Of a stretch of DNA of 64,000 bases, positions 9,932 through 60,712 are shown one piece after another. The translations under genes were made by a program, and so were the position numbers. A model generated the notes under the pieces. That model had not been told where the DNA came from. It did no database searches and saw only the letters and a program-made list of their open reading frames with translations. Positions within the stretch are counted from its first letter, which is position 1; each line of letters begins with the position of its first letter. This stretch comes from a virus. The stretch spans positions 64,571 through 128,570 of the IMG/VR virus record IMGVR_UViG_3300031972_002122; one strand, given 5' to 3'.

Positions 9932-10652
9932 GATAGGAATACTGGGGGACGGGCTACTTGCTAAGGAGTTGAATAGGCAGACTGGCTGGGATATGATCAG
10001 TAGACGCATGCACGGTTTTGATATAACTGACCCATCGACATGGAATAGTACACCGTTGTGGAGGTCTGAGCACGGCGTCGCATTCTATACGCAATATACC
10101 ACACTCATAAATTGTATAGCGCATACCGATACGTATTCTGAAGATCGGGATACCCACTGGGATGTTAACTATGTGGGTGTTGCTAATTTAGTAGAGTTTT
10201 GTAATCATCATAACATAAAATTAGTACACATTTCGACGGATTATATCTACAGTAACTCGACATCTAACGCATCTGAAGAAAAAACAGTACCAGTTCACTG
10301 TGAGAACTGGTATGGCTATACTAAATTATTGGGTGATGGGCATGTGCAATTATCTAGTGACGATTATCTACTGATCCGTGCTACACATAAGGCTAAACCA
10401 TTTTCACATCAATCAGCGTGGATAAACCAGATCGGAAATTTTGATTATGTCGACGTGATTAGTGAGAAAATAATCAAACTAGTTGAGGCGGGTGCTGATG
10501 GTGTGTATAATGTTGGTACACAGTTGAAAAGTATGTATAATCTAGCCAAACAGACTAATATGGTAGTCACTCCTGAACATGGGTCGTATCGACCGAGTAC
10601 ACCAACCGACACAAGTATGAATATAACTAAAATGAAGAACAAATTAACATGA
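9918..10652 (+). CDS. RmlD-like dTDP-4-dehydrorhamnose reductase (SDR)
   Basis: GDGLLA, INCIAHTD, VHISTDYIY, YGYTKLLGD. Confidence 0.8.
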   Translation: MMKSKIGILGDGLLAKELNRQTGWDMISRRMHGFDITDPSTWNSTPLWRSEHGVAFYTQYTTLINCIAHTDTYSEDRDTHWDVNYVGVANLVEFCNHHNIKLVHISTDYIYSNSTSNASEEKTVPVHCENWYGYTKLLGDGHVQLSSDDYLLIRATHKAKPFSHQSAWINQIGNFDYVDVISEKIIKLVEAGADGVYNVGTQLKSMYNLAKQTNMVVTPEHGSYRPSTPTDTSMNITKMKNKLT

Positions 10653-32793: not shown

Positions 32794-33006
32794 ATGGGAA
32801 ATAATATTGATATAGTAAGTCTTAAACTTAAGCAACTAAAGCAAGCACTTCGTGATCCTACTAAGTCAGTTAAGGATTTGGAAAAAATGATAGATGACAT
32901 GGGGGAGAATGTTAAACTCGCGTCAAATGAAATCCAGATAAACTACGAACAGATATCTAAACGTCTAACGGACGAGATGAATGGTAAATCTTCAAAGAGA
33001 GAATAA
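32794..33006 (+). CDS. small coiled-coil protein
   Basis: ORF; similar to an unlisted ORF at ~32637 (MKIDEAMIKLRTLQAAIFDP). Confidence 0.5.
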   Translation: MGNNIDIVSLKLKQLKQALRDPTKSVKDLEKMIDDMGENVKLASNEIQINYEQISKRLTDEMNGKSSKRE

Positions 33007-33009
33007 TAT

Positions 33010-34263
33010 ATGGCACAAGTGTTTTTATTTGATGGAGAATCTAGCAGGATTAAGTGTCAAAATACATCGTCATTTACTATGACCGAGGTATACAGTCGTT
33101 GGAAGGACTGGGTACTCACATCGGATAATGCGAAGTTTTTGCGTGCGTTTAGATTTGTGGGGGGTGACCCTACGGTTTCTGGGAGATCGCTAGGGATAAC
33201 ATACTTTTTAATGAACAATTGGAGAATTGTGCCATTTACAGGATCATTAGATTATGATCTAGATGTTGAGGGTAATTTGTTCTTAGATGAGGCAACTAAT
33301 TCAGTGAGTGCGTCGAACCCTTACGAGTTCCCGGGCGTACTGGTACGACAATCCGTATCCAACCTTACCGACGCGCAAGTACTTGAATCAGATATTAATA
33401 AGCGACTAGATTATACAAATGACACGGTGTTCTTAGACCCAATCGGTGGGGTTAGTGGATCGCTACACCCTGTTGGTACGTCGGCATCCCCAGTTAATAA
33501 TGAAGCACAAGCACTTCAATTAATGGGTACGTATGGGCTACAGCACGTGGTGGTTCAAGGTCACTATACACTATCTAAAAATTGGGATGGTAAGGAGATA
33601 ATCGGTGAAACTCAGATGGTTAATTTGACAATCGACTCGGCATCACTTAATAATACTAAGATTTCTAATATCTCACTGACTGGGTATATCGATTCTACTA
33701 GATTTATGGTAGAGAGATCACTCGTGTATGATTTGACATATCAGAATGGGTGGTTTGATACGTGTGGGTTGTCGGGATCGTTATGTATGATCAATACACA
33801 ACCTAATGCTACATTCTTTTCGTGCTTCTCGATGGTGCCCGGTACAGGATCACCATTACTAGATTTCGCGGGATCGTCTAATTCACTCGTCAATATTCGA
33901 ATGTATTCTGGGGGTATACGATTCAAAAATTATGCATCGTCGACAAATATTAGTACCGTTGAATTTACTGCTGGTCGGATGAATATCGATCCAACATGTT
34001 CAGATGGTTTACTATCAGTACGTGGTACTGCATACTTGAACGGTACTGGTAGTGGTGTTAATTTGGAGACTGGATCATTATTTAACCCAGTATTCTTCAG
34101 TCGAAAGATTGATGACATGGCTACTAAAACTAAGGACATACACCTAGTTCACGGACTCGATCCAACAGCACCTATGTATGTGACTAAGACGCAGCGAACG
34201 GCTGGTGATGTGTCGCAAACATTCGTGACAGGTAGTGGTGATGTGACAGTAACGAGGTTGTAG
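33010..34263 (+). CDS. putative virion structural protein
   Basis: EVYSRWKDW...GGDP N-terminal motif; beta-rich. Confidence 0.55.
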   Translation: MAQVFLFDGESSRIKCQNTSSFTMTEVYSRWKDWVLTSDNAKFLRAFRFVGGDPTVSGRSLGITYFLMNNWRIVPFTGSLDYDLDVEGNLFLDEATNSVSASNPYEFPGVLVRQSVSNLTDAQVLESDINKRLDYTNDTVFLDPIGGVSGSLHPVGTSASPVNNEAQALQLMGTYGLQHVVVQGHYTLSKNWDGKEIIGETQMVNLTIDSASLNNTKISNISLTGYIDSTRFMVERSLVYDLTYQNGWFDTCGLSGSLCMINTQPNATFFSCFSMVPGTGSPLLDFAGSSNSLVNIRMYSGGIRFKNYASSTNISTVEFTAGRMNIDPTCSDGLLSVRGTAYLNGTGSGVNLETGSLFNPVFFSRKIDDMATKTKDIHLVHGLDPTAPMYVTKTQRTAGDVSQTFVTGSGDVTVTRL

Positions 34264-34625
34264 TGGAAGCGAACGGTCTTGATCCATTAACTATAGCCAA
34301 CCAAGGGCTACTTTCTAACGATCCATGTCAGGTCGCAGCTCAGGGATTGTTACATGTACGTATAGACATTGTCGATCCCGAGGATGAAATTATCATACCA
34401 GATACTGGTGGTGGGATCGTTGATAATGACATATGGAAGCGTAAGACTAAGGAAGAGAAGAAGAAATTACGTGCTAAAATCACAGTTTCGGCAACTGTTG
34501 ATGGAATTACATACGAAGAAATTAAGTATTCAAATGATTGCAGTATAACTGTACAAGACGTTGACATTCAAGTAGTTGAGTCTACTACTAAGCCTAAAAT
34601 TACCATTGAAGTTAAAAAAAAATAG
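34263..34625 (+). CDS. hypothetical protein
   Basis: ORF overlapping the upstream stop. Confidence 0.55.
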   Translation: MEANGLDPLTIANQGLLSNDPCQVAAQGLLHVRIDIVDPEDEIIIPDTGGGIVDNDIWKRKTKEEKKKLRAKITVSATVDGITYEEIKYSNDCSITVQDVDIQVVESTTKPKITIEVKKK

Positions 34626-34643
34626 TAGAAACTTTGTAAAAAA

Positions 34644-34678
34644 TTTGGTTATGTCTTGATGTTTTATATATATTTGCA
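34644..34678 (+). promoter_or_regulatory. Bacteroidota-type sigma70 promoter for tRNA block A
   Basis: TTTG...TATATTTG, matching -33 TTTG / -7 TAnnTTTG. Confidence 0.7.
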
Positions 34679-34706
34679 CATACTTATGAACGAAGAGATA
34701 CGAAAA

Positions 34707-34814
34707 ATGAAAACATTATTATATACATATAGTCTTTTATCGATGACACTGACAAGTGGCTGGTCGTTTTGCGACGGGACGGATTGTCTTTGTAATCTCC
34801 GCTGTGTGGAATAA
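34707..34814 (+). CDS. putative attenuator leader peptide of tRNA block A (MKTLLYTYSLLSMTLTSGWSFCDGTDCLCNLRCVE)
   Basis: Manual translation (in-frame upstream ATG at 34686); lies between promoter and terminator; composition matches downstream tRNAs. Confidence 0.75.
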   Translation: MKTLLYTYSLLSMTLTSGWSFCDGTDCLCNLRCVE

Positions 34815-34855
34815 AGTATTCATGTAATATGTAAGGGATACATTTTAAACATATA

Positions 34856-34891
34856 GAAGCTCGGAGACATAAAAAATCTTCGGGCTTTTTT
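34856..34891 (+). terminator. attenuator terminator upstream of tRNA block A
   Basis: GAAGCTCGGAGA/TCTTCGGGCTTT plus U-run. Confidence 0.8.
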
Positions 34892-34904
34892 AATTTATAG
34901 TAAT

Positions 34905-34973
34905 ATGGAAAATAGAGAAGACATAGAATATTATTATAGCATTACCAATGGGTGTGCTATCGTTGTGGTGTAA
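34905..34973 (+). CDS. Tyr-run uORF (MENREDIEYYYSITNGCAIVVV) reading into tRNA-Tyr
   Basis: TAT TAT TAT at 34929-34937, 12 nt before the tRNA. Confidence 0.7.
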   Translation: MENREDIEYYYSITNGCAIVVV

Positions 34974-35034
34974 ACAAGGCGGTCTGTAAAACCGTCGCCG
35001 TTGGCTAAGATGGGTTCGAATCCCTCCACACCCA
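34950..35034 (+). tRNA. tRNA-Tyr(GTA)
   Basis: GGGTGTG/CACACCC; GCGGT-CTGTAAA-ACCGT; variable arm; TTCGAAT. Confidence 0.85.
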
Positions 35035-35049
35035 CAAAATTTTTAAACT

Positions 35050-35211
35050 ATGAAATGTCCAAAGTGTACGGGAGAACTAAAAAAAGAATTGTTAAAGGAC
35101 AATTCACAACAGGCTCAAGGATCGTGGACTTGTAAGGATTGTAGAACCATTTGGTTCATAATTGAATGTGGGAACCGCGAACGGGGCAAGTATGGAAAGA
35201 AGGTGACGTAG
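35050..35211 (+). CDS. small Zn-ribbon protein (53 aa)
   Basis: Manual translation MKCPKC...WTCKDC. Confidence 0.6.
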   Translation: MKCPKCTGELKKELLKDNSQQAQGSWTCKDCRTIWFIIECGNRERGKYGKKVT

Positions 35212-35278
35212 CTGAGTTTTGGTTTAGCGCAGGTTTGAAGCATCTGAGACGTAGGTTCGATCCCTACCGTCACCACCA
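35202..35278 (+). tRNA. tRNA-Phe(GAA)
   Basis: GGTGACG/CGTCACC-A-CCA; CAGGT-TTGAAGC-ATCTG. Confidence 0.92.
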
Positions 35279-35298
35279 AAATTTCCATACTTATTAGT

Positions 35299-35877
35299 AT
35301 GGAAAGATTAAAACTTAAAAAGTTATTAGACTCTGGTAAAAGTACTAGAGAGATTGCAGAGTTAATTGGAAGGGGGCAGACGACTGTTAGATATTGGATT
35401 AAGAAGCATGGGTTGCGATGTAAGTATCATGAGATTAATCGTCAACAGCGGATAAGTGATATTTGTGAAGCTGTTGCCAAGTCCACCTCATACTCAGAGG
35501 TATGTAGGAAGTTGAAAATTCCTCGTTCTGGAAATTCATATCAGAATATGAGATCGGTGATTGAGAGATTGAGTTTAGATGTCTCCCATTTTACAGGGCA
35601 GCGAAAATATCTAGAGTCTATAAAATTAACTCCATATGATGTATTAATATATGATCGGTTGGATGGTAGGCGGGAACGTACTATAGTGTTGCGTAACGCG
35701 TTAACTGAACTTGGTGTTGATGTGTGTAGATGTAGCCTGTGTGGGTTAGATTCTTGGTTGGGAAAACCACTTGGAATGCATATTGATCATATAGATGGTG
35801 ATAGATTAAATAATATTCGTGATAATTTGAGAATTTTATGTCCAAATTGTCACAATCAAATAACGTATAACAAATGA
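35299..35877 (+). CDS. HNH homing endonuclease with N-terminal HTH
   Basis: CSLCG, HIDHIDGDRLNN..DNLRILCPNCH. Confidence 0.9.
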   Translation: MERLKLKKLLDSGKSTREIAELIGRGQTTVRYWIKKHGLRCKYHEINRQQRISDICEAVAKSTSYSEVCRKLKIPRSGNSYQNMRSVIERLSLDVSHFTGQRKYLESIKLTPYDVLIYDRLDGRRERTIVLRNALTELGVDVCRCSLCGLDSWLGKPLGMHIDHIDGDRLNNIRDNLRILCPNCHNQITYNK

Positions 35878-35939
35878 AATACAAAATAAAAAACAGCAAA
35901 GTCATGTAAGTATTTTAACTTACAAAATAGGACTTTGAT

Positions 35940-36221
35940 ATGAGTAGATCAAGAAAGAAACACGGTGTTGTTAAAGACCGTGGACTCACCCGTAGAGAAT
36001 GGAACAGAAAATTCAGAAGGGTGAACAGACAACGAGTACGTATGGGTAAAGACCCATACCAAATGAAGGAACTGATAAATCCTTACGATGTGTATGATTG
36101 GATATACATATGGGATGAATCGGATATGCAGCGACGGTGGGCTGAAGATGGACGCCATGATTATTATAAAAGGGTATATAAAACCCTTGATAATATGCGT
36201 CGCTGGTACTTTAGAAAGTGA
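35940..36221 (+). CDS. basic conserved phage protein (MSRSRKK family)
   Basis: ORF track. Confidence 0.65.
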   Translation: MSRSRKKHGVVKDRGLTRREWNRKFRRVNRQRVRMGKDPYQMKELINPYDVYDWIYIWDESDMQRRWAEDGRHDYYKRVYKTLDNMRRWYFRK

Positions 36222-36224
36222 CAT

Positions 36225-36295
36225 GGGGATAAGCGTAGGTTGTGTCAGGTGGTCTCCAAAACCGCTCTGTTAGAGTTCGAATCTCTATATCCTTG
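36225..36295 (+). tRNA. tRNA-Trp(CCA), weak D arm
   Basis: GGGGATA/TATCCTT-G; GTGGT-CTCCAAA-ACCGC; TAGAG-TTCGAAT-CTCTA. Confidence 0.8.
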
Positions 36296-36336
36296 CTATT
36301 CGAGTACGTATAAGCACCGCGTTAAGGGCTTGCTAT

Positions 36337-36425
36337 AGTGCTAAAGCGAATGGAAAGCGATCGCCCTGTCACGGCGACATCAGTCGAAAGATTGTATGCG
36401 GGTTCGAGTCCCGTTAGCACTGCCA
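36337..36425 (+). tRNA. tRNA-Asp(GTC) with long variable arm
   Basis: AGTGCTA/TAGCACT-G-CCA; TCGCC-CTGTCAC-GGCGA. Confidence 0.88.
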
Positions 36426-36576
36426 ATAAGAAGCCGTGTGTAAATCCCTGATGATCCAGAATACTCGAGGTCTGGGGAGGGGGTGGAGCATGTAAAGAAA
36501 GCAGTTAACCTAACGTACATGGGGATGACTCGGTTTAAATCCGACGTGAGTAGCGGGACGATATACGCTACAACTC

Positions 36577-36651
36577 GCGGCACACGCATAAGAGGTGGTG
36601 CACCTGCCTTCCAAGCAGGAATTAGATTCGGTTCGATCCCGAAGTGCCGCA
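36577..36651 (+). tRNA. tRNA-Gly(TCC)
   Basis: GCGGCAC/GTGCCGC; CCTGC-CTTCCAA-GCAGG. Confidence 0.9.
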
Positions 36652-36724
36652 CAAATTGATCATCGCTAGGAGATGCATCGGTTGAGAATCAGTTAGGCTG
36701 CTCGATTTGACTGGCGATGAACTT

Positions 36725-36798
36725 GCGACCAACGCATAAGAGGTGGTGCACCACGTTGCCAACGTGGAATAGAGCGAGTTCGATCCTCGCTGGTCGCC
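36725..36798 (+). tRNA. tRNA-Gly(GCC)
   Basis: GCGACCA/TGGTCGC; CCACG-TTGCCAA-CGTGG. Confidence 0.9.
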
Positions 36799-36875
36799 AA
36801 AATCTAGGTCGCAACTAGATGATGTGAGTTATGAGTTCAGGAATCTCACGAAGAATGACAAAATGTCCTGTCTAT

Positions 36876-36947
36876 GTCTCTAAAGCATTTATGGATGATG
36901 TCCACCTTTGTACCGTGGGGAACGGGATTCGATTTCTCGTAGAGACT
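36876..36947 (+). tRNA. tRNA, probably Thr(TGT)
   Basis: GTCTCTA/TAGAGAC; CCACC-TTTGTAC-CGTGG with one mismatch; anticodon register somewhat ambiguous. Confidence 0.65.
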
Positions 36948-36997
36948 CAACAATTCGATTCCAGTGTTTGATTCGTTTTTTGTATACTTATATATGT

Positions 36998-37654
36998 ATG
37001 AAATGGACAGAAACTGAATTGAACGAAGTGATTAATCTTATCAAAAGTGGTAAGACTTATGGTGAAATATCTAACATTGTGGGTAGAAGTAAATCTTCTA
37101 TCAAAAATAAACTAGGGCGTAGCAACGAAAATTATAAAAAGTATGTTAAGTGCGACGTGCTTTTATGTATTCAGTGTGATAATGTTATTAAAAATTTTGG
37201 TATTAAATTTTGCTCTAGATCATGTGCTACTACTTATAACAATTTACTACGAGGAAAAAATCCACGTAAGTGTAAGTGTTGTGGTGGTGAATATTTCGGA
37301 AGAGCTAAAAAATACTGCAGTATTTATTGCTTTCATAAAAGTCAGTGGATGGCAATCGTGAATTTAATTGAATCTGGTGATACTAGCCTTTCTAATCGAC
37401 GTTATAAAAAATATTTAATTTATAAATATGGTGAACAATGTATGGAATGCGGTTGGGATAAAATCAATCCATATAGTGGAAATATACCAATTGAATTAGA
37501 ACATATCGATGGTAATTCTAATAATAACTCTTTGGATAACTTAAAATTATTATGTCCTAATTGTCATTCACTCACACCAACATACAAAGCATTAAATATT
37601 GGTAATGGTCGACATAACCGCATGGTGAGATATAAATCTGGTAAGAGTTTTTAA
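36998..37654 (+). CDS. HNH endonuclease with HTH and Cys-rich repeats
   Basis: FCSRSC, YCSIYC, ELEHIDGNSNNN..NLKLLCPNCHSLT; start moved to MKWTE because the longer ORF overlaps a tRNA. Confidence 0.9.
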   Translation: MKWTETELNEVINLIKSGKTYGEISNIVGRSKSSIKNKLGRSNENYKKYVKCDVLLCIQCDNVIKNFGIKFCSRSCATTYNNLLRGKNPRKCKCCGGEYFGRAKKYCSIYCFHKSQWMAIVNLIESGDTSLSNRRYKKYLIYKYGEQCMECGWDKINPYSGNIPIELEHIDGNSNNNSLDNLKLLCPNCHSLTPTYKALNIGNGRHNRMVRYKSGKSF

Positions 37655-37750
37655 AAAGAGCCGTTTAGACTGTGAGGCGTACCATAGGGATGGTGAATAT
37701 CCTTACATTTATGTGTTGCGTATATGAAAAAGTTTTTTTATATTTGATGT

Positions 37751-38014
37751 ATGAGAAAATTAGAAGGCACAACAGCATGTAAAATGAGAGATGAACTTTG
37801 GTCTAAGCGGAGTAAAACGTTTACACCTACTGTGATTACCAACAGGTTGACTAAGATTGGAATACCAGCGTGGTTACGGTCACAGATCATTCAAATGGTA
37901 CGGTACAACGAAATGGATCGATGTACAGATGCAATTGAGCAGGCGATGTACCAGTCTGTATGTAATTTGATCGTCAAGGAATTGATGGATGCTGAGAAAA
38001 AGGTATTTGATTAA
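37751..38014 (+). CDS. hypothetical protein
   Basis: ORF after a sigma70-like promoter. Confidence 0.6.
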   Translation: MRKLEGTTACKMRDELWSKRSKTFTPTVITNRLTKIGIPAWLRSQIIQMVRYNEMDRCTDAIEQAMYQSVCNLIVKELMDAEKKVFD

Positions 38015-38022
38015 AACAATAT

Positions 38023-38092
38023 AGCACAAGTGCGCGGGACACAGGACGGACTCATATTCTGTCTTCGCTCGGATCGTTACCGAGTTGTGCTA
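38023..38092 (+). tRNA. tRNA(CAT), Met or Ile2, with non-canonical D and T loops
   Basis: AGCACAA/TTGTGCT; ACGGA-CTCATAT-TCTGT; CTCGG-ATCGTTA-CCGAG. Confidence 0.7.
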
Positions 38093-38107
38093 CTGATTAG
38101 AATAAAA

Positions 38108-38206
38108 ATGAAAGAAAGAACTGAAATATCGAGTAGTAGTTCCAGATACTGGAAGGTGAACCTAGCAGGGTCTAGGACTGGATTGCTAATCCATGGGGTC
38201 GGGTAA
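38108..38206 (+). CDS. Ser-run uORF (MKERTEISSSSSRYW...) reading into tRNA-Ser
   Basis: TCG AGT AGT AGT TCC at 38129-38143, 7 nt before the tRNA. Confidence 0.72.
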   Translation: MKERTEISSSSSRYWKVNLAGSRTGLLIHGVG

Positions 38207-38238
38207 AACTGACTGGGCTTCGATTGCTCCTCCTTCCG
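38151..38238 (+). tRNA. tRNA-Ser(GCT)
   Basis: GGAAGG/CCTTCC-G; TGGA-TTGCTAA-TCCA; long variable arm. Confidence 0.82.
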
Positions 38239-38245
38239 CTTAATT

Positions 38246-38335
38246 GGTAAGTTAAGCAGTCCCATGGAGGGGCGACTAGTCTTGAAAACTAGGTAGCAGG
38301 TCATGCTGCTCGGGGGTCGGTTCCTCAACTTACCG
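38246..38335 (+). tRNA. tRNA-Ser(TGA)
   Basis: GGTAAGT/ACTTACC-G; CTAGT-CTTGAAA-ACTAG; long variable arm. Confidence 0.85.
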
Positions 38336-38343
38336 CAATTTAT

Positions 38344-38417
38344 GGTCAAGTGGCTGAGTGGATGTAGGCATCTGATTGCAAGTCAGGTTTACGGGGGTTC
38401 GAATCCCTCCTTGACCT
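38344..38417 (+). tRNA. tRNA-Cys(GCA)
   Basis: GGTCAAG/CTTGACC-T; TCTGA-TTGCAAG-TCAGG. Confidence 0.92.
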
Positions 38418-38430
38418 CAACGAAAAAATT

Positions 38431-38484
38431 ATGAAAGTAATAAATACATACAATCGATTACGACTGCTACTCTTACCTGAGTAG
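38431..38484 (+). CDS. Leu-run leader peptide (MKVINTYNRLRLLLLPE)
   Basis: TTA CGA CTG CTA CTC TTA; followed by a hairpin and four tRNA-Leu genes. Confidence 0.78.
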   Translation: MKVINTYNRLRLLLLPE

Positions 38485-38521
38485 CCTCACCACTTCAAAA
38501 TTCAGTGGGGGGCAAATCTAT

Positions 38522-38595
38522 GCCCCCATGGTGGAACTGGAATACACGTTTGATTAAGGATCAAAAGCTTGCGAGTTCGAATCTCGCTGGGGGTA
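38522..38595 (+). tRNA. tRNA-Leu(AAG), short variable loop
   Basis: GCCCCCA/TGGGGGT-A; TTTGA-TTAAGGA-TCAAA. Confidence 0.85.
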
Positions 38596-38605
38596 CAAAA
38601 AGAAA

Positions 38606-38666
38606 CCGATCGGGTACACGGTATACCCGATTGGGTACACGGTATACCCGATTGGGTATATCCGAT
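38606..38666. repeat. 21-bp tandem repeat (~2.9 copies), each copy a hairpin
   Basis: CCGATYGGGTACACGGTATAC x2 plus a partial third copy. Confidence 0.85.
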
Positions 38667-38749
38667 GACTCTGTGATGAAATGGAAGACATGCCCGGCTC
38701 AAAATCGGGTGCCTAGCTAGGCGTGTGGGTTCGAATCCCACTAGGGTCA
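38667..38749 (+). tRNA. tRNA-Leu(CAA)
   Basis: GACTCTG/TAGGGTC; CCCGG-CTCAAAA-TCGGG; variable arm. Confidence 0.9.
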
Positions 38750-38754
38750 CAAAT

Positions 38755-38832
38755 ACCTCCGTGGGCAAATGGTAAAGTCCGCAGTCTTAGACACTGTAAT
38801 CGTAGTTGCTGGTTCGACTCCAGTCGGAGGTA
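38755..38832 (+). tRNA. tRNA-Leu(TAG)
   Basis: ACCTCCG/CGGAGGT; GCAGT-CTTAGAC-ACTGT. Confidence 0.9.
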
Positions 38833-38840
38833 CAATTAAT

Positions 38841-38914
38841 AGTCCCGTAGCCCAACCGGAAGAGGCATCAGGTTTAAACTCTGTTCAGTGTGGGTTCGAC
38901 TCCCATCGGGACTA
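38841..38914 (+). tRNA. tRNA-Leu(TAA), short variable loop
   Basis: AGTCCCG/CGGGACT; CAGG-TTTAAAC-TCTG. Confidence 0.85.
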
Positions 38915-38937
38915 CTATTTTTTATATACTTATTAGT

Positions 38938-39669
38938 ATGTGTACATGTATTGATATAAACGAGCTCCAATTGATTGAGGATGGATCACAACCAGACTTC
39001 AATCTGGATAATGAATTTGCCGAAGCTAATAGAAAATACTTCAAGGGCATGCTTAAGAAGATTCCTATGGAATATAAACACCTGACTGGTAAACTAGGGT
39101 TAGTTAAAGCTAAAGTGCGTAGAGATAGCTCTAAACGGATCGTGAAAGCATTCCCAGTAGTACTGCAGATGACTGATCAATTCAATTACACCAGAGAACA
39201 ATTCTTGAGTACATTCTTACATGAACTTTGCCACTTATTCATGCTGCAGGATGCTGGTAAGTATTCGTGGAGTGGTGGGTATCATGGTAGAGAATGGCAG
39301 AAACTAGCTGATACCGTATCTAAGAAATCTGGTGTACCTATAACTAAGGACGAACATACTGGTAAATATGACACTAAAGACCTACCATCACCAGTAGTAG
39401 CGTTTGCCAAATTTAGTGGTGGGCATATTAGTATCGCATATACAACCAAAAGTATATGGAGTCGGCGAGATGATGAGTATATAGATTGGTTAACCGCCAC
39501 CGCTAAAGGGAAGCAGTGGGTGGTCTTCACAACCAGAGATGGTCGAATAACAAACTTCGCTGCAAAATCTATAAAGAGACCCACGTTCTATAAAATCGAT
39601 CAGGACATTGTTACTGACATGATGAAGAACAAATCCGAAGAAGTTATATTAACCAATAATCATGTATAG
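38938..39669 (+). CDS. SprT-like zinc metalloprotease
   Basis: FAEANRKYF, TFLHELCH (HExxH), YHGREW. Confidence 0.8.
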   Translation: MCTCIDINELQLIEDGSQPDFNLDNEFAEANRKYFKGMLKKIPMEYKHLTGKLGLVKAKVRRDSSKRIVKAFPVVLQMTDQFNYTREQFLSTFLHELCHLFMLQDAGKYSWSGGYHGREWQKLADTVSKKSGVPITKDEHTGKYDTKDLPSPVVAFAKFSGGHISIAYTTKSIWSRRDDEYIDWLTATAKGKQWVVFTTRDGRITNFAAKSIKRPTFYKIDQDIVTDMMKNKSEEVILTNNHV

Positions 39670-42617: not shown

Positions 42618-42752
42618 ATGAAAGATTTGATGAACATAGAACGTGTGGACGAACCAGCCGAGGAGACATGGCGCGGTCGTCTAAATGGACTAGGACACCA
42701 GACTTTCAATCTGGACGATGCGGGTTCGATCCCCGTCCGCGCTACCAAGTAG
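42618..42752 (+). CDS. Glu-rich uORF (MKDLMNIERVDEPAEET...) reading through tRNA-Glu
   Basis: GAA, GAA, GAG GAG within the last 10 codons before the tRNA. Confidence 0.68.
   Translation: MKDLMNIERVDEPAEETWRGRLNGLGHQTFNLDDAGSIPVRATK
42670..42747 (+). tRNA. tRNA-Glu(TTC)
   Basis: GGCGCGG/CCGCGCT-A-CCA; CCAGA-CTTTCAA-TCTGG. Confidence 0.93.
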
Positions 42753-44119: not shown

Positions 44120-45030
44120 TGGGAGGTGGAACGTATAATTTTAATGCTAGAGCTACGTCTTCGGTTACTAAAGGTTTTAACAAGGCAACTGTTGATTCGT
44201 TGGATACTGTATTTAAGCAGCAACGACAACGCCGAGTGCATGATAGTCTCGACCCACGCGGTGTGGTTATTCGGGAATCTAGGGATGGTGAGGATCACCC
44301 AGAATCATTAGCTATTTTAGTTGGTATAGATGTCACAACATCAATGGGTAACGTCCCAGTATTGTTAATACGTGACGGACTACCCAATATGATACAGCGT
44401 ATATTCGAGGAGGGTATCGCTGATCCACAGGTGGCGTTCATTGCCATCGGTGATCATGAGTGTGATAACTATCCATTACAGATCGGGCAGTTCGAATCTT
44501 CGGATCAGCTACTAGATGAGTCGTTGACCAACACCTATATTGAAGGTGGTGGTGGTGGCAATGGTGGTGAGAGTTATTTGTTAGCTTGGTACCACGCCGC
44601 GATGCACACGTCAATTGATTGTTTTGAAAAGCGCGGACAGAAAGGGGTTCTTATAACAATTGGTGATGAGCCATGTCTTAATAAGGTTTCTGGATCAGTA
44701 TTAGCTAGGTTGTATAATTTACAATCTGAACTAGATTATTCAGCAGCAGAATTGTTAAAACTTGCTTCGGAGAAGTATGATGTGTATCATATCAATGTCG
44801 GATCGACGTATTCTGGGTATAGATCGAGTACTAAGAATTATTGGAAAGAGTTGCTTAGTGATCATTTCATCGACGCTAAAAGTCATGAAGATATTCCTAG
44901 AATTGTTGCGGAGCTGACGTCTAAGAGTTATAGTGGTACTCGGCAGAAAGTTGAGACTGACTATGCTGAGGCTTATAATGGATCACCTACAGACGTGGAT
45001 GATATTAAAGAACCTAAAATCACATTATAA
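44119..45030 (+). CDS. vWA (MIDAS) domain protein
   Basis: DVTTSMG (DxTxS), AIGDHECD, EGGGGGNGGESY, ITIGDE. Confidence 0.85.
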   Translation: MGGGTYNFNARATSSVTKGFNKATVDSLDTVFKQQRQRRVHDSLDPRGVVIRESRDGEDHPESLAILVGIDVTTSMGNVPVLLIRDGLPNMIQRIFEEGIADPQVAFIAIGDHECDNYPLQIGQFESSDQLLDESLTNTYIEGGGGGNGGESYLLAWYHAAMHTSIDCFEKRGQKGVLITIGDEPCLNKVSGSVLARLYNLQSELDYSAAELLKLASEKYDVYHINVGSTYSGYRSSTKNYWKELLSDHFIDAKSHEDIPRIVAELTSKSYSGTRQKVETDYAEAYNGSPTDVDDIKEPKITL

Positions 45031-46178
45031 TGAATGTAAGTATTGTCACTGGAGTTGGATATGGCGACGAAGGTAAAGGCGTAACCACTAAGTGGCTATG
45101 CGAGCAATTGTTATCTGGGAATGATGATGTACATGTGATGGTAGTCCGATTTGGTGGTGGAAATCAAGTCGGACATACCACCATGGTTGATGATTTCATT
45201 CACACACATCATCACACTGGTGCTGGAACCTTAGTAAATGTACCAACGTTCTATTCTAGATTCTGTACTGTAGACCCAATTAACACGGTATCTGAGATTG
45301 AGTTCTTAACCCAGAAGGGATTTACACCACGTAATATGTATGACCCACGGTGTATGATTGTAACTCCACTCGATGTGATTTACAATCGAATGCGTCATGC
45401 TAAAACACAACACGGAAGTGTTGGGGTGGGGTTTGGTGCAACTATTGCTAGAAATGAATCACACTACCGACTATATGTTGCCGACATTGCAACTCGGGAG
45501 ATATTCATCCAGAAGTGTAAGGGTATCCAGCAATATTATAACAGCCTAGGTGTGGATTTTGATCTAGATTGTGAGGCGTTTTACATCGACTGTATTAACT
45601 TTTTAGATATTGTGGAGGTAAGCAATCTAAATCTGGAGATAACACGTTACATTGGCTCAAAATCGTCCCATATAGTATTTGAGGGGCATCAAGGGGTATT
45701 GCTAGATCAGGAATATGGTGTATTTCCCCATGTTACTAGATCAAAGACTACATGTAAGAATGCATTCACGATACTTGAAGAAGAGAACCTTAACGGGATA
45801 TGTGAGCATATAAATCAATTCATGGTAACGCGAGCATATCATACACGTCATGGTAATGGGTATTTTGAAGAGGAGGATATTTTACTGACAAATACTGAGT
45901 TTGAAACTAATAAATTCAGTGAGCATCAGGGAGCATTTAAAACAGCTCCACTTAACAAAGCATTATTGACTAGGGGAGTACTTTGTAATCTTATGGATGA
46001 GTCTGACTTAGGAAATATTAAAAGACATCTAGTAGTTACGTGTTGTGATCAAGTAGAGTCTTATGAGGACGTCATTGAATATATTTCTGAAACCACCCAA
46101 CTACTGGACACTCTGTGTATTAATGACCATCCATCAGGAAACATTAGACTATATGCCAAGGAAGAAAAAGATAACTAA
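45030..46178 (+). CDS. purA: adenylosuccinate synthetase-like protein (divergent PurA family)
   Basis: GYGDEGKG, RFGGGNQVGHT, HGSVGVG, FEGHQGVLLDQEYGVFPHVTRS, TRHGNG. Confidence 0.85.
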   Translation: MNVSIVTGVGYGDEGKGVTTKWLCEQLLSGNDDVHVMVVRFGGGNQVGHTTMVDDFIHTHHHTGAGTLVNVPTFYSRFCTVDPINTVSEIEFLTQKGFTPRNMYDPRCMIVTPLDVIYNRMRHAKTQHGSVGVGFGATIARNESHYRLYVADIATREIFIQKCKGIQQYYNSLGVDFDLDCEAFYIDCINFLDIVEVSNLNLEITRYIGSKSSHIVFEGHQGVLLDQEYGVFPHVTRSKTTCKNAFTILEEENLNGICEHINQFMVTRAYHTRHGNGYFEEEDILLTNTEFETNKFSEHQGAFKTAPLNKALLTRGVLCNLMDESDLGNIKRHLVVTCCDQVESYEDVIEYISETTQLLDTLCINDHPSGNIRLYAKEEKDN

Positions 46179-46368: not shown

Positions 46369-47034
46369 ATGAAGATGACTAATATAGTAAACGAAATTGT
46401 CTCCGAGAAGATGACAGTTAACAAGGTCAGTGCCAAGGACTACGCTAAACTCGTGGCAGCGGCTTACGATGCTGCACCTGAGCACGACCCAAATGCACTC
46501 CCACATTGGAAGGCACTCAATGAATCAAATTACAAACTCTGGAGGAGACTACTATCTAAGGTGAATGTCGTATTCACTTCAGAAAATCCTCCACGGAAAG
46601 ATACTATTCGTATAGCTGGTAAGGATCATCCACTCATTCATAATGGTGATCCGTATGAAAATCAACCAGAAATGCGTCAGGATGTTAAGGAGAATAATCG
46701 AATTATGATTATGATTGATCATTCCGAACATCCAGTGTTTACTGTCGAGGATAATATTGTATTTAGAACTGTACACGATTACATTGTACATATATTAGGG
46801 AATAAACCATTCGGTTTATTTGGAGAACTTCAATCATATAACTTGCATGCGAAGATGGTGCCAGTTGCGGCACGACCAGCCATATTTACCGAAGTTGTCG
46901 GGCAAGTATGCTATCATTCTATCCATGGCAAGTTTCCAGTGCAAAAAGTAGCTACACTGGATGGGTTTGATTATTTAAGAGTTGGGGATGTAAGCCCCGA
47001 GGCAATAAAGAGGTACGGGAATGAAGTTAATTGA
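46369..47034 (+). CDS. hypothetical protein
   Basis: HPVF...NIVFRTVHDYIVH motif; TATTTATA upstream. Confidence 0.7.
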   Translation: MKMTNIVNEIVSEKMTVNKVSAKDYAKLVAAAYDAAPEHDPNALPHWKALNESNYKLWRRLLSKVNVVFTSENPPRKDTIRIAGKDHPLIHNGDPYENQPEMRQDVKENNRIMIMIDHSEHPVFTVEDNIVFRTVHDYIVHILGNKPFGLFGELQSYNLHAKMVPVAARPAIFTEVVGQVCYHSIHGKFPVQKVATLDGFDYLRVGDVSPEAIKRYGNEVN

Positions 47035-47668
47035 TATATTGAGTGAATCGTTAGACTTTGGCTTAATCAATGAGGCTGGACTAGCCAGAGTTTTATCTAG
47101 GGTCGGTGGTAAGGATTTTATTATAGCATCGGCGTATCGGTACGGGAATTCTAATAAGGAAAATCGAAGACGTAATGGTGAACTTTTAAATTATCTAAAC
47201 ACTAAGAGGATGGGCGGTTACGTTTTAATTGGACACTGGCAAGAAGCACCCGACGGGATAGAGTGGAAGGACGCTGATCAGGATCAGTTGACGGATTCTA
47301 TAGAAGAAGCTATTCTATTTATCAAGCCTGATGATATGAGTCGTGATGAATTTACACAAATTGGGGTAGACATAACCAATCAATATAATCAAGATGCGGT
47401 ATTATTAGGTTTAAACAGTTCTGAACTAGACGCTGAACCTGAAGCTGGAGCTCCGTCGTTAGATAATATGGATGTGTATCTACTCTTTAAGGATGGCGGT
47501 CGTGAGAAAATAGGCACCAGACTGACATTGAATAAAATATCTCAGGCTTATTCTCAATTAAAATCTAAACCAAACATTCCGTTTGTATTTGAAGGTGTGC
47601 TACATCCTACGAATAATCTGGGTAAGCAGCTCTTTAAGATAAAAAATATATTGTATGAAATTAATTGA
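47021..47668 (+). CDS. hypothetical protein (MKLIDIL.E N-terminus)
   Basis: IASAYR..NKENRRRN..L; YNQDAVL. Confidence 0.7.
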   Translation: MKLIDILSESLDFGLINEAGLARVLSRVGGKDFIIASAYRYGNSNKENRRRNGELLNYLNTKRMGGYVLIGHWQEAPDGIEWKDADQDQLTDSIEEAILFIKPDDMSRDEFTQIGVDITNQYNQDAVLLGLNSSELDAEPEAGAPSLDNMDVYLLFKDGGREKIGTRLTLNKISQAYSQLKSKPNIPFVFEGVLHPTNNLGKQLFKIKNILYEIN

Positions 47669-48341
47669 TATGTTAATAGAAACGTTGGTGACTGAAGGCG
47701 TGTATGATCCAGCGATATTTAAAGCAATTTTCATAGTAGGCGGTGCAGGCTCTGGGAAGACATTCGTTAGGAATAAATCGACTAGAGGATTGGGTTATAA
47801 AGTGGTGACGTCGGATGATATGCTTGTTTCGCTAATGAACAAGAATAATCTATCACTAAAAATGCCCCCAGAGGAGGATGATGAGCGTGATGCACTAAGA
47901 ACTATCGCTAAGGATAAAACAGACGATCGATTAGACATGTATCTAGAAAATCGCCTAGGTGTTATTATTGAAGGTACAGGGCATAATTATGAAAATATCA
48001 AAAATACTCAGCGGAGATTAGCTGAACTTGGGTACGACACGTTTATGATCTTTGTGAACGTTCCAATGGATGTAGCATTAGATAGAAATGCTAAACGAGA
48101 TAGATCAGTTCCACCAGATATTGTTAAAGAGAAATGGCTCAACGCTCAGCAAAACTTGGGTAGGTATCAGTCACTATTTGGTCGGAATAATGTTTCTATC
48201 ATAGATAATGATGACCCATCCGAGAATGTATTTGAACGAATGTGGAAAAACGTTATGATTTTTACCAAGATGAAGGTCAAAAATCACCGAGCAGTGGAGT
48301 GGATAAAGCAGCAATTGAAAAAAAAAGACAGAAATAATTAA
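47655..48341 (+). CDS. P-loop kinase, zeta-toxin/AAA_33-like
   Basis: GGAGSGKT, IIEGTG, VALDRNAKRDRSVP. Confidence 0.85.
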   Translation: MKLIDMLIETLVTEGVYDPAIFKAIFIVGGAGSGKTFVRNKSTRGLGYKVVTSDDMLVSLMNKNNLSLKMPPEEDDERDALRTIAKDKTDDRLDMYLENRLGVIIEGTGHNYENIKNTQRRLAELGYDTFMIFVNVPMDVALDRNAKRDRSVPPDIVKEKWLNAQQNLGRYQSLFGRNNVSIIDNDDPSENVFERMWKNVMIFTKMKVKNHRAVEWIKQQLKKKDRNN

Positions 48342-48346
48342 AATAA

Positions 48347-48380
48347 TTTGGTTTATTCGAAATGTTTTATATATATTTAC
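48347..48380 (+). promoter_or_regulatory. Bacteroidota-type promoter for tRNA block C
   Basis: TTTGG...TTTTATATATATTTA, near-copy of the block A promoter. Confidence 0.68.
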
Positions 48381-48397
48381 ACTAATTATAAAAAATC

Positions 48398-48478
48398 ATG
48401 TTAAGAAATATCAACATATCAGCCATTAAAGTGAATCGCATTAAAGCGAAAGGGTCGAAGTATGTCGTGTTGATATAA
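48398..48478 (+). CDS. putative attenuator leader peptide of tRNA block C (MLRNINISAIKVNRIKAKGSKYVVLI)
   Basis: Manual translation; I/K/N/R/A/V-rich; its 3' end is complementary to the terminator 5' arm. Confidence 0.8.
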   Translation: MLRNINISAIKVNRIKAKGSKYVVLI

Positions 48479-48504
48479 ACTAAATTAGAAGTAATTAAGG
48501 ATAT

Positions 48505-48539
48505 AAAGCCAGTACGACAAGATCGCACTGGCTTTTTTT
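48505..48539 (+). terminator. attenuator terminator directly before tRNA block C
   Basis: AAAGCCAGTACGA/TCGCACTGGCTTT plus U-run. Confidence 0.85.
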
Positions 48540-48542
48540 ATT

Positions 48543-48621
48543 GGCGAGTACCAGCCCATCCTGATAAGATGGAGAACTGTAATTGGTTGTTGAAAATGTG
48601 GGTTCAAATCCCATCTCGCCA
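48543..48621 (+). tRNA. atypical tRNA-Ile(GAT) lacking a normal D arm
   Basis: GGCGAG/CTCGCC-A; CCATC-CTGATAA-GATGG; GTGGG-TTCAAAT-CCCAT. Confidence 0.7.
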
Positions 48622-48637
48622 ACTTAACTGTTAAAAT

Positions 48638-51281: not shown

Positions 51282-51398
51282 CTAATAATTGAAATATCGT
51301 TCGGTGAACGTCCGAAACACCGAGTAGTAACTGTTCAGAGCGGTCAAACACTTGGGAATGACGTCCCTGACGATAATTCTTTTTAAAATGTAAATAAA

Positions 51399-52577
51399 AT
51401 GAAACAAGTAATAAGTAGTCAGAAGAAGCCAATTAAGATGTGGCTAGATAATCTGGAGCATGGAGCGATCCAGCAAGCTAAGAACTTGGCGAACTTGCCA
51501 TTCTTATTTAAGCATGTTGCGATTATGCCAGACTCACATCAGGGTTATGGTATGCCGATCGGTGGTGTACTAGCTACTGAAGGTGTGGTTATACCGAATG
51601 CTGTCGGTGTTGACATTGGATGTGGGATGTGTAGTGTTAAGACTAGCATCAAAACGGAAGAGATTGATAAAATTGACTTCTCAAAGTTAATGAACTTGAT
51701 CCGTAAGAAGGTTCCAGTGGGATTTAACCATCACCAGCGAAATCAGAATTCCAAGTGGATGCCTGATGGGATGGATGATGTACCAAAGACTGGTAACATT
51801 CGGAAGGAGTTGAGTAGTGCGCTGAAGCAAGTAGGCACACTCGGTGGTGGTAATCACTTTATAGAGATACAAGCTGGTGATGATGGCTATGTGTGGATAA
51901 TGATTCACTCAGGGTCACGTAACTTAGGTTATAAGACAGCTAGACACCATAACACGTTGGCTAAAGAGATCAATAAGAAATATTGGTCTGAGGTTCCACC
52001 ATCGTGGGATTTAGCATTCTTACTGATCGACTCGCAGGAGGGACAGGATTATATAAGTGAGCTTAATTATGCGACGAAGTTTGCGCTAGCAAACCGTGCA
52101 CATATGATGGAAGCTGTTAAAGAATGTTTAATTGATGTAGCGGGATGGGGTGTTACGTTTGATCCGATGATCAACAAGCCACATAACTTTGCGGAGATGG
52201 AACATCACTTTGGTAAGAATGTTATGGTACACCGTAAGGGTGCTTGTCGGGCTAGGAATGGTGAAGTGGGTATGATACCCGGCTCTCAAGGAACGCACTC
52301 GTATATCGTGAAGGGTAAGGGTGAGGAAAACTCATTCCAGTCTTGCTCACACGGTGCTGGTAGAGTGATGGGACGTAAAGCCGCTCAGAGAAGTTTAGAT
52401 TTTGACACTGAGGTTAAGCGGTTGAATGACATGGGAGTGTACCACACATTAGAAACGGTAAAGCAATTAGATGAAGCTGCAGGGGCATATAAAGATATTG
52501 ACCTCGTGATGGAAAACCAATCTGATCTAGTAGAAATATTAGTGAAGCTGAAGCCATTAGCAGTAGTAAAAGCATAA
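51399..52577 (+). CDS. rtcB: RNA ligase RtcB
   Basis: MPDSHQGYGMPIGG, VGVDIGCGM, GTLGGGNHFIE, HSGSR, HN, HRKGA, SCSHGAGR, DEAAGAYKDI. Confidence 0.96.
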   Translation: MKQVISSQKKPIKMWLDNLEHGAIQQAKNLANLPFLFKHVAIMPDSHQGYGMPIGGVLATEGVVIPNAVGVDIGCGMCSVKTSIKTEEIDKIDFSKLMNLIRKKVPVGFNHHQRNQNSKWMPDGMDDVPKTGNIRKELSSALKQVGTLGGGNHFIEIQAGDDGYVWIMIHSGSRNLGYKTARHHNTLAKEINKKYWSEVPPSWDLAFLLIDSQEGQDYISELNYATKFALANRAHMMEAVKECLIDVAGWGVTFDPMINKPHNFAEMEHHFGKNVMVHRKGACRARNGEVGMIPGSQGTHSYIVKGKGEENSFQSCSHGAGRVMGRKAAQRSLDFDTEVKRLNDMGVYHTLETVKQLDEAAGAYKDIDLVMENQSDLVEILVKLKPLAVVKA

Positions 52578-53720: not shown

Positions 53721-53750
53721 ATGAAGTATAAACGAAAATATAAACAGTAA
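53721..53750 (+). CDS. Lys-rich leader peptide (MKYKRKYKQ)
   Basis: AAG plus 3x AAA in 9 codons; followed by a hairpin and three tRNA-Lys genes. Confidence 0.72.
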   Translation: MKYKRKYKQ

Positions 53751-54093: not shown

Positions 54094-54345
54094 ATGAATA
54101 AGAAAGATAAAGAAACGTATAAAAAGATTGTGGAAGGTGAATGGAAAGACATGCCTGAATTCCACCAAGACGATTTAACGTCTAAGCGAAAGATTGTTGT
54201 TCATTTTAGGAACGATGATGATGTAAAAAAGTTTGAGGAGTTGATGGATCAAAAGATAACGCCAAAGCAAAAATCGCTATGGTATCCATACATGCCTCCT
54301 AGACGGTATGCTCATAAACGATATATAGACGAAGATGAATCCTAG
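54094..54345 (+). CDS. small protein of the type found next to GREB1/TAGT-like glycosyltransferases
   Basis: WKDMPEF..IVVHFRN..F..LMDQKITPKQKSLWYP. Confidence 0.65.
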   Translation: MNKKDKETYKKIVEGEWKDMPEFHQDDLTSKRKIVVHFRNDDDVKKFEELMDQKITPKQKSLWYPYMPPRRYAHKRYIDEDES

Positions 54346-55201
54346 ATATCCTATATACATACCATCTAAGGGTCGATACGAGACGCGTAAGACCGTTAAA
54401 GCACTCGATGCTATATCGGTGCCATATCGGATCGTTGTAGAGCCACAGGAGTACGATAAATACGCTGCAGTCATTGACGAGCATAATATATTAGTACTCC
54501 CAGAGGATAACGTGAAGTTAATCGGTGCTCGGAATTGGATAAAGCAACATTCAATATCGGAGGGGTATGAGCGACATTGGCAACTTGATGATAATATAGA
54601 ACAGTTCAATAGGCTTAATAGAAATTACCAAGTCAAGGTATCGTCTGGGACTATATTTAGGTGTGCTGAAGATTTCACGGATAGGTATGACAACATAGCT
54701 TATTCAGGATTTCAATACGATCACTTCGCAAAGGCGAAGACTAAGATGTTACCATTTATATTGAATACACGGGTGTATTCGTGTACGTTAGTCAATAACC
54801 TTGCACCATACGCTTGGCGATCGATTTATAATGATGATACTGATGTGTGTCTTCAAGCTTTGAAAGATGGGTGGTGTACTGTGTTGTTCAACGCATTCCT
54901 CCAGTGTAAAGCTACGACAATGACAGTTAAGGGTGGAAACACTGAAGAGTTATATTTGATCGAGGATGGTCGTAAGAAGATGGCACAGGCGTTAGTAGAC
55001 TTACATCCAGACGTTGCTAAGGTAGCGTGGAGATTTAATCGATGGCAACATGTAGTGGACTATAGCTCATTCAAGTTGAATAATCGATTGCAGAAGAAAG
55101 ATGGTATAACGATCCCAGAAGGGATCAATAATTATGGTATGAAATTAGTCACCGTAGATTCTGATGAATACACACGGTGGGAAGCAAATAAGCTCCTTTA
55201 G
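54335..55201 (+). CDS. GREB1-like / TET-associated glycosyltransferase (putative DNA base modification)
   Basis: YPIYIPSKGR, GARNWI, WQLDDNI, YNDDTD.CLQAL..GWCT, KGGNT. Confidence 0.82.
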   Translation: MNPRYPIYIPSKGRYETRKTVKALDAISVPYRIVVEPQEYDKYAAVIDEHNILVLPEDNVKLIGARNWIKQHSISEGYERHWQLDDNIEQFNRLNRNYQVKVSSGTIFRCAEDFTDRYDNIAYSGFQYDHFAKAKTKMLPFILNTRVYSCTLVNNLAPYAWRSIYNDDTDVCLQALKDGWCTVLFNAFLQCKATTMTVKGGNTEELYLIEDGRKKMAQALVDLHPDVAKVAWRFNRWQHVVDYSSFKLNNRLQKKDGITIPEGINNYGMKLVTVDSDEYTRWEANKLL

Positions 55202-60368: not shown

Positions 60369-60370
60369 GA

Positions 60371-60676: not shown

Positions 60677-60712
60677 TAATCGACTCCTGAAGGGGTATAA
60701 AAATATAATACG

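Follow-up and report, generated by a model that had tools for sequence, protein, structure and literature searches.

Leader-peptide sensing is textbook knowledge for amino-acid operons, in which trpL, pheL, hisL, leuL, thrL, ilvL and pheM of pheST are leader-peptide transcription attenuators. In erm/cat translational attenuation, as in the ermC leader, a ribosome stalled on the 5′ arm of a hairpin frees the sequence of the 3′ arm. Here, we describe an upstream open reading frame (uORF) with a run of tyrosine (Tyr) codons that reads into a Tyr transfer RNA (tRNA) gene, within a stretch of 64,000 nucleotides (nt) of DNA of an uncultured phage of marine origin (positions 64,571 to 128,570 of IMG/VR record IMGVR_UViG_3300031972_002122), which is termed the window. 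With the amino-acid attenuators, among them pheL (PMC3082878), this Tyr element shares a very short frame, a run of codons that all specify one amino acid, mutually exclusive pairings in the leader and, as proposed here, a stall that would report the supply of charged cognate tRNA. With erm/cat leaders it shares the predicted position of the stalled footprint on the 5′ arm of a hairpin. Judged from the opening lines of abstracts, full-text literature searches returned no account of leader peptides or uORFs that control tRNA genes or pre-tRNA folding, and none in which a ribosome directly gates how a tRNA precursor folds.

We propose that the uORF is translated and senses how Tyr codons are decoded, so as to gate the folding and maturation of the tRNA-Tyr that the phage itself encodes, a reading that we consider slightly better than even. 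Most firmly held is the view that the cognate mini-ORF truly belongs to a codon-sensing system, and we are less sure of the hairpin as the effector. The window is the final 64 kb of a 128,570-bp record with a CheckV completeness of 73%, and all of its genes are oriented on the + strand.

Anatomy of the tyrosine leader

The element consists of the following features.

34855..34891, + strand: intrinsic terminator of the block-A master attenuator, with a 12-13 bp stem, a 9-nt loop and U6
34895-34906 with 34928-34939, + strand: hairpin A, made of A-U and G-U pairs only, in minimum-free-energy structures
34905..34973, + strand: Tyr uORF of 22 codons, MENREDIEYYYSITNGCAIVVV followed by a stop (ATG 34905-34907, TAA 34971-34973)
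34929..34937, + strand: TAT TAT TAT, in frame, codons 9-11 of the uORF, the proposed stall site
34936..34946, + strand: 5′ arm of hairpin B, the anti-tRNA strand ATAGCATTACC, which overlaps the last Tyr codon
34950..35035, + strand: tRNA-Tyr(GUA), class II as drawn by ARAGORN, CCA not encoded
34951..34960, + strand: 3′ arm of hairpin B, GGTGTGCTAT, tRNA positions 2-11

All coordinates given in a preliminary description, including those of the three TAT codons and both pairing arms, proved exact on re-checking. The uORF starts 14 nt past the U-tract of the terminator, and its stop codon occupies bases 22-24 of the tRNA, within the D loop as drawn by ARAGORN; no terminator-like site was found between 34905 and 34950. 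Its start context ranks at the 92nd percentile among ATGs of the + strand, and the eight leader starts in the tRNA region all reach the 80th percentile or more, as scored with a matrix from 43 long-gene starts against background ATGs that lie mostly in coding sequence, a comparison that favors AT-rich spacers. TAT accounts for 972 of the 1448 Tyr codons in the long ORFs of the phage. Of the 664 ATG-ORFs in the 128-kb genome that are 15-30 codons long, 4 encode three successive Tyr residues, the Tyr uORF being one of the four.

Bacterial class II tRNA-Tyr is identified by a GUA anticodon, a long variable arm, a 7-bp acceptor stem and A73. ARAGORN depicts all four in the window gene, together with a D stem that is weak and a T stem made up of three G-C pairs and two non-standard positions. 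The best Rfam match at the gene is to the tRNA-Sec model (30.9 bits, cut-off 47); matches to the trpB motif and to permuted transfer-messenger RNA fell under their cut-offs and were ignored. Each feature of the Tyr element is, by itself, only moderately unusual, and it is the context, namely the leaders before the other tRNAs of this region, that makes the element probably real.

Cognate leaders across the tRNA region

ARAGORN at default settings finds 26 tRNAs between 34950 and 56559, and relaxed settings together with Rfam add approximately 6 more. Association between leaders and tRNAs was assessed by label permutation, in which the tRNA identities were reshuffled over their sites 20000 times while the sequence features were kept, using 31 tRNAs and 39 ATG-ORFs whose start lies at most 150 nt upstream of a tRNA. 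The summed -log10 binomial p for cognate codons was 21.2, compared with 11.2 +/- 2.8 in the permutations, 19 of which reached the observed value. Cognate homo-runs of at least three residues were present in 3 ORFs (YYY before tRNA-Tyr, SSSSS before tRNA-Ser and LLLL before tRNA-Leu), where a mean of 0.45 was expected and 99 of 20000 permutations reached 3. The number of ORFs with p < 0.01 was not significant (1000/20000 permutations). Cognate-codon mini-ORFs precede the tRNAs of the window beyond chance, and the leaders concerned are as follows.

34644..34684, + strand: promoter-like motif of tRNA block A, with a second near-identical copy at 48347-48384 before block C
34707..34814, + strand: block-A master leader ORF MKTLLYTYSLLSMTLTSGWSFCDGTDCLCNLRCVE followed by a stop, nearly all residues being Y, F, W, D, G, T, S, C or L
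At 38108, + strand: Ser mini-ORF beginning MKERTEISSSSS, before two tRNA-Ser
At 38431, + strand: Leu mini-ORF MKVINTYNRLRLLLLPE followed by a stop, before four tRNA-Leu; leader complementary to the tRNA 5′ strand
42618..42752, + strand: Glu uORF beginning MKDLMNIERVDEPAEET, which reads through the whole of tRNA-Glu (42670-42747)
At 42945, + strand: Pro/His/Gln mini-ORF MNTYTIIQHQPQPVGAIHQHRLV followed by a stop, before tRNA-Pro/His/Gln; leader complementary to the tRNA 5′ strand (Pro)
From 48398, within the unit 48347-48540, + strand: block-C master leader ORF MLRNINISAIKVNRIKAKGSKYVVLI followed by a stop; block amino acids I, A, N, R, K and V
At 53721, + strand: Lys mini-ORF MKYKRKYKQ followed by a stop, before tRNA-Lys genes; leader complementary to the tRNA 5′ strand

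Both master leaders have the promoter-like motif upstream and a strong terminator downstream. Among the 2686 small ATG-ORFs that the genome contains, the block-A ORF ranks first for the amino acids of its block (binomial p 2e-5), and the block-C ORF ranks first to second for its own set. The start context of the block-A ORF reaches the 98th percentile for ATGs on the + strand. The 21-nt core of the motif, which is roughly 45 nt long in total, occurs at 34659 with 0 mismatches and at 48362 with 1, the two next-best sites in the 128-kb record having 5. These rankings, together with the shared motif and the terminators, indicate that codon-sensing leaders are a property of the tRNA region. In block A, the last leader codons (34789-34808) can pair with 34850-34873, including the 5′ arm of the terminator, as an antiterminator alternative; the fold of this 199-nt stretch has z -3.28, with 0/200 shuffles as good. 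The layout is that of a classical-looking multivalent attenuator. The block-A motif fits TTTG-N-TAnnTTTG, which we take to be a promoter consensus of the Bacteroidota type. A Bacteroidota host, considered from TAnnTTTG counts, was dropped since the motif is without strand bias (67 vs 60).

The tRNA-Glu locus is a second copy of the Tyr architecture. Four Glu residues are found among the first 17 codons of its uORF, and the Glu-codon stretch pairs with the 5′ strand of tRNA-Glu (-20 kcal/mol, z -2.51; 2/200 shuffles as good).

Predicted pairing and ribosome masking

Hairpin B contains 10 pairs and one bulged U, with a predicted energy of -9.9 kcal/mol (-10.5 kcal/mol and z -3.14 when calculated as a duplex). 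It is partly exclusive with hairpin A, which joins the start-codon region, including the AU of the ATG, to the Tyr codons. The significance of hairpin B differs with the null that is used: dinucleotide shuffles of a 34-nt excerpt equalled it in 3/200 cases and leader-only shuffles in 0/300 and in 3/500, as against 19/200 for shuffles of a 61-nt stretch. When the 22 nt before each tRNA were paired with its first 12 nt and scored against shuffled leaders, the median z was -2.0 for the uORF-led tRNAs (n=7) and -0.28 for the others (n=25; Mann-Whitney p 0.0025).

Ribosome masking was calculated with a footprint from -12 to +15 of the peptidyl (P) site and a free precursor of 148 nt. Footprints with the aminoacyl (A) site at 34929, 34932 or 34935 span 34914-34947 and overlap the 5′ arm of hairpin B. 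In the thermodynamic calculation, the mean pair probability of the acceptor stem rises from 0.09 in the free precursor to 0.98-0.99 when a ribosome sits at any of the Tyr codons. The probability of hairpin B falls from 0.69 to 0 under masking, a calculation of geometry and thermodynamics only.

Several results of this kind weigh against the proposed sensor. The 19/200 just mentioned is one of them, and the folding of the full pre-tRNA is no better than that of shuffles (z -0.94). Shuffled 57-nt leaders already lower the acceptor-stem probability to 0.75 +/- 0.31, and 15% of them bring it to 0.31 or below. Low values are also found for many uORF-less tRNAs in their natural 57-nt upstream context, and across 29 tRNAs the ensemble probability does not separate the uORF-led from the other tRNAs (p 0.39 and 0.53), partly because truncated neighboring tRNAs misfold in the calculation; it was rejected as a class marker. 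The Rfam tRNA model RF00005 scores below its gathering threshold at tRNA-Tyr, a tRNA that is non-canonical, and the Tyr count of the whole uORF is only 82nd of 1679 (p 0.077).

Some of these results would be expected if an AT-rich 57-nt spacer merely happened to hold an ATG, an in-frame TATTATTAT and a 10-bp complement of the tRNA start, none of them functional. Such a coincidence would also be in keeping with the frequency of the 9-mer TATTATTAT (4 copies in the window, 3.05 expected), with the p of 0.077 for Tyr enrichment over the whole ORF, with the interference of leaders with acceptor stems that is predicted commonly in the array, and with the fact that approximately 30 tRNAs had been searched for any such feature in the first reading. 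It accounts poorly, however, for the label permutations, which retain all sequence features and still yield just 19 and 99 of 20000, for the presence of YYY in only 3 others of 663 ORFs of similar size, and for the coincidence of the hairpin with the uORF-led class. We regard coincidence as unlikely, and the loci described below also count against it.

Analogous tRNA-Tyr loci in other phages

Two pattern scans of IMG/VR, for a Tyr-codon run followed 40-70 nt later by a GUA anticodon loop and then by a T loop, gave 9 and 8 loci (17 in total), in 6 and 1 of which ARAGORN found a tRNA-Tyr; six of these are distinct, as L061 is identical to L062. The other 10 loci, including 7 of the 8 from the second scan, were chance matches without a tRNA and were discarded. 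At five of the six distinct loci (L055, L057, L060, L070 and L061), the Tyr run lies in frame behind an ATG without an intervening stop. With a chance per locus of 0.14-0.23, estimated from shuffled upstream leaders, the probability of at least five in six is 0.0014; dropping L061 as promoter-like leaves a strict count of 4/6 (P 0.015). This recurrence of in-frame Tyr mini-ORFs before tRNA-Tyr argues against coincidence in the window.

The leaders in question take several forms. L055 encodes MDYYYCYRHSHME and a stop, ends at tRNA bases 4-6 and is followed by tRNA-Tyr and tRNA-His. L057 encodes M(KM)LYYYVCQ... in a frame that runs into the tRNA. L060 encodes MLLFNFYTSTQYYYLQYGATYRPVDVSASIPY and a stop, with 7 Tyr in 32 codons and the stop at +17; as in the window, tRNA-Phe comes next. 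L070 has a terminator-like hairpin, then MIYYY and a stop, then 26 nt and a lone tRNA-Tyr. Almost no ORFs are shared with the phage of the window by the three loci compared (1/32 for L055, 0/15 for L057 and 0/30 for L060). The 17-tRNA array of L055 also passes the permutation test (735/20000), its highest-scoring leaders being the Tyr and Lys mini-ORFs; the latter, MKKYKHKQ with a stop and a hairpin before tRNA-Lys (10329-10355), resembles the MKYKRKYKQ leader of the window. A further uORF of L055 (478-564) contains QPQQ and runs into tRNA-Gln.

Anti-tRNA pairing was not significant at the three loci scored (z -0.48 for L055, +0.89 for L057 and -0.96 for L060), so that hairpin B may be incidental. 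The Tyr mini-ORF would then be a real decoding sensor whose output is something other than the anti-tRNA hairpin at 34936-34960, and ribosomes that enter the tRNA or halt before it may act on Rho access, on access of ribonuclease (RNase) E or RNase P, or on precursor stability. That L055, L057, L060 and L070 share an in-frame Tyr run near the tRNA without significant pairing is what such a sensor would leave, as are the scattered uORF stops, which in the window and the analogues fall at -29, +4, +8, +17, +22 and +36 relative to the tRNA start, and an ensemble measure that is not class-specific. Within the window, however, it is mainly at uORF-led tRNAs that the leader pairs with the 5′ strand, the pairing being strong at both Glu and Tyr, and the masking calculation behaves as a clean switch. 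We judge a real sensor with such another output to be quite unlikely.

The same scans bear on a third explanation, in which the tRNA array has a promoter with TATTAT (34929-34934) as its -10 box. Transcription would start at approximately 34941, leaving the ATG outside the RNA, and the inverted repeat formed by 34895-34906 and 34928-34939 could be an operator. TGGAAA-17-TATTAT (34906-34934) is a 9/12 sigma-70-like match, which counts against a translated leader, and at L056 and L061/L062 an identical Tyr string before tRNA-Tyr follows a good -35 hexamer (TTGCAT or TTGACG) by 17 nt; at those two loci it is probably a promoter -10 box. In the window, the -35 hexamer is poor, such matches occur at the level of chance in the region (11 vs 8.5 +/- 2.5 in shuffles), and the promoter motifs ahead of tRNA blocks A and C belong to another type. 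Shine-Dalgarno motifs are also scarce (12 of 43 gene starts under a loose rule), which to us suggests a host that relies on signals other than the classical sigma-70 and Shine-Dalgarno ones. A promoter would moreover leave the frame, the ATG and the recurrence of in-frame mini-ORFs elsewhere unexplained. It appears very improbable at the Tyr locus.

Returning to the sensor that gates tRNA-Tyr folding, the preliminary description had held that a stalled ribosome masks the inhibitory strand. This interpretation is partly supported. It fits the geometry, the calculated recovery of the acceptor stem from 0.09 to 0.98-0.99 and the recurrence of cognate mini-ORFs in the window and elsewhere, whereas it finds no backing in the pairing at the analogous loci or in the class specificity of the ensemble measure. 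On the opposing side there is also a non-cognate control scan for an Asn-codon run of the same composition, which still returned 2 loci.

Search for relatives

No close relative was found in INPHARED, IMG/VR, JGI metagenome contigs or the sequencing runs examined, which likewise counts against the reading. When the locus was compared with INPHARED by megablast and blastn, the most that came back was a tRNA match of 46 nt to Microbacterium phage Cece; blastn of 34893-39000 gave only scattered tRNA and HNH matches, and tblastn with the RtcB protein reached an identity of at most 42.6%. In IMG/VR, a 417-amino-acid fiber-like protein gave 3 loci, matching by its N-terminus only and without tRNA; a 120-amino-acid protein, the PurZ-like protein and RtcB gave no loci, and an exact 22-mer of tRNA-Tyr gave no match. 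Against 5.8 billion proteins, the 417-amino-acid protein had 18 matches, the best foreign one at 56%. A scan of JGI metagenome contigs with an alignment built from 13 of these 18 proteins yielded 50 loci with a tRNA in 0/50, and two large records that were checked for the tRNA contained no match. The stretch 33000-37000 is wholly contained in one seawater metagenome run, and small parts of it are present in two others. Contigs from metagenome runs X2 and X3 were identical, low-depth fragments, apart from a piece at 51397-51643 with 34 differences in approximately 247 nt. The sequencing runs contain a fragment of RtcB at 86% identity, and their contigs included no relative spanning the Tyr leader.

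Proposed mechanism

In the proposed mechanism, read-through of the block-A master terminator would place the uORF and tRNA-Tyr on one RNA. When charged tRNA-Tyr is plentiful, translating ribosomes would pass the YYY codons, enter the tRNA and stop in the D loop, thereby unwinding its 5′ half. On departure of the ribosome, the hairpin 34936-34946/34951-34960 would re-form faster than the long-range acceptor stem, acting as a kinetic trap, and the precursor misfolded by hairpin B would give little mature tRNA-Tyr. When tRNA-Tyr is scarce, because of starvation or because a host nuclease cleaves it, the ribosome would stall on one of the TAT codons 1-3. Its footprint would then cover the anti-tRNA strand, with its edge near the first base of the tRNA, so that the whole tRNA would be free for cloverleaf formation and for processing, presumably by RNase P.

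Extended to the array, these elements may form a two-tier, codon-resolved control of tRNA supply, which would serve with RtcB and a kinase-like protein as a sensor-and-response system against host nucleases that cleave particular tRNAs; we put this forward tentatively, as less likely than not. In the first tier, the master attenuators at 34707-34891 (Y/F/W/D/G/T/S/C/L) and 48398-48540 (I/A/N/R/K/V) would open their block whenever any codon of the block is decoded slowly. In the second tier, the mini-ORFs of individual tRNAs (Tyr, Glu and probably Ser, Leu, Lys and Pro/His/Gln) would choose among the tRNAs by ribosome occupancy and set which of them fold and mature within the precursor.

Gene content of the tRNA region

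HNH endonuclease genes are interspersed among the tRNAs, several of which are non-canonical. The further tRNAs and the protein genes of the region and its surroundings are listed below.

35050-35211, + strand: 53-amino-acid ORF with CxxC...CxxC (zinc-ribbon-like), between tRNA-Tyr and tRNA-Phe, overlapping tRNA-Phe by 10 nt
35940-36221, + strand: 93-amino-acid ORF with 5 Trp, ending 3 nt short of tRNA-Trp
36577: Gly(tcc) tRNA, missed by ARAGORN at default settings
38023: possible Met tRNA, missed by default
38151 and 38251: Ser(gct) and Ser(tga) tRNAs, missed by default
38890-39669, + strand: SprT-like protein
45030-46178, + strand: PurZ-like ORF (phrog_1211, '2-aminooxy adenylosuccinate synthetase', E 1.6e-43)
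47021-47668, + strand: S-adenosylmethionine lyase-like ORF, a weak match
47655-48341, + strand: kinase-like P-loop protein (AAA_33 / Zeta_toxin families), within the tRNA region
48542-48622: tRNA found by Rfam, missed by default
51136: Ile(gat) tRNA, missed by default
51399-52577, + strand: RtcB RNA ligase (6.9e-111), within the tRNA region
54335-55201, + strand: TET-associated glycosyltransferase ORF (1.3e-43), overlapping tRNA-Val by 10 nt

RtcB and the kinase-like protein are a possible tRNA-repair pair, and their position inside the tRNA region fits a phage that copes with tRNA damage. The PurZ-like ORF suggests that 2-aminoadenine may take the place of adenine in the phage DNA. Toward the end of the window (60001-64000), the guanine plus cytosine (GC) content rises up to 45.5% and the GC skew up to 0.53, and near 63.5-64 kb there are highly repetitive small ORFs, with Asp/Met/Glu/Val repeats on the + strand and Ser/Thr/Ile repeats on the - strand.

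Comparison with known systems

Phage T5 (NC_005859) resembles the window in that its tRNAs are mixed with HNH endonuclease genes and very small ORFs. The cognate signal of its tRNA region is weak overall (356/10000 permutations), and its tRNA-Tyr leader, 96 nt long and located downstream of promoter P14a, contains no Tyr-codon uORF, a further point against the reading; T5 was dropped as a cultured example. A 42-amino-acid ORF of T5, T5.070 (9676-9804 of locus L066), has 5 Cys and ends 5 nt before tRNA-Cys; it may be either a cognate leader or a protein that binds zinc.

If the reading is correct, phage tRNAs would gain a regulatory logic in which a tRNA is made only when that same tRNA is failing, which bears on why phages carry tRNA arrays and on how they answer tRNA-cleaving defense systems. 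It would be a new mechanism for a translating ribosome to serve as chaperone or anti-chaperone of a structured RNA that is part of the transcript being translated. The Tyr element is small, at approximately 130 nt, and as read here it would apply a known regulatory principle, leader-peptide sensing, in a new form on a tRNA gene.

In contrast to the amino-acid attenuators, whose targets are genes for making or charging the amino acid, the regulated product here is tRNA-Tyr(GUA) itself. The uORF enters its target RNA with no terminator in between, and the proposed output is RNA folding and processing instead of transcription termination. The terminator at 34855-34891 lies upstream of the uORF ATG and belongs to the master leader (34707-34814), so that the Tyr element is situated downstream of an attenuator. 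Compared with erm/cat leaders, the proposed trigger is a shortage of tRNA and not a drug acting with the nascent peptide, and the 3′ arm is formed by tRNA positions 2-11, the acceptor/D-arm strand, and not by a ribosome-binding site or start codon. By analogy, the Tyr element would combine a sensor like that of a leader-peptide attenuator with an effector like that of the erm type, while departing from both in their defining features.

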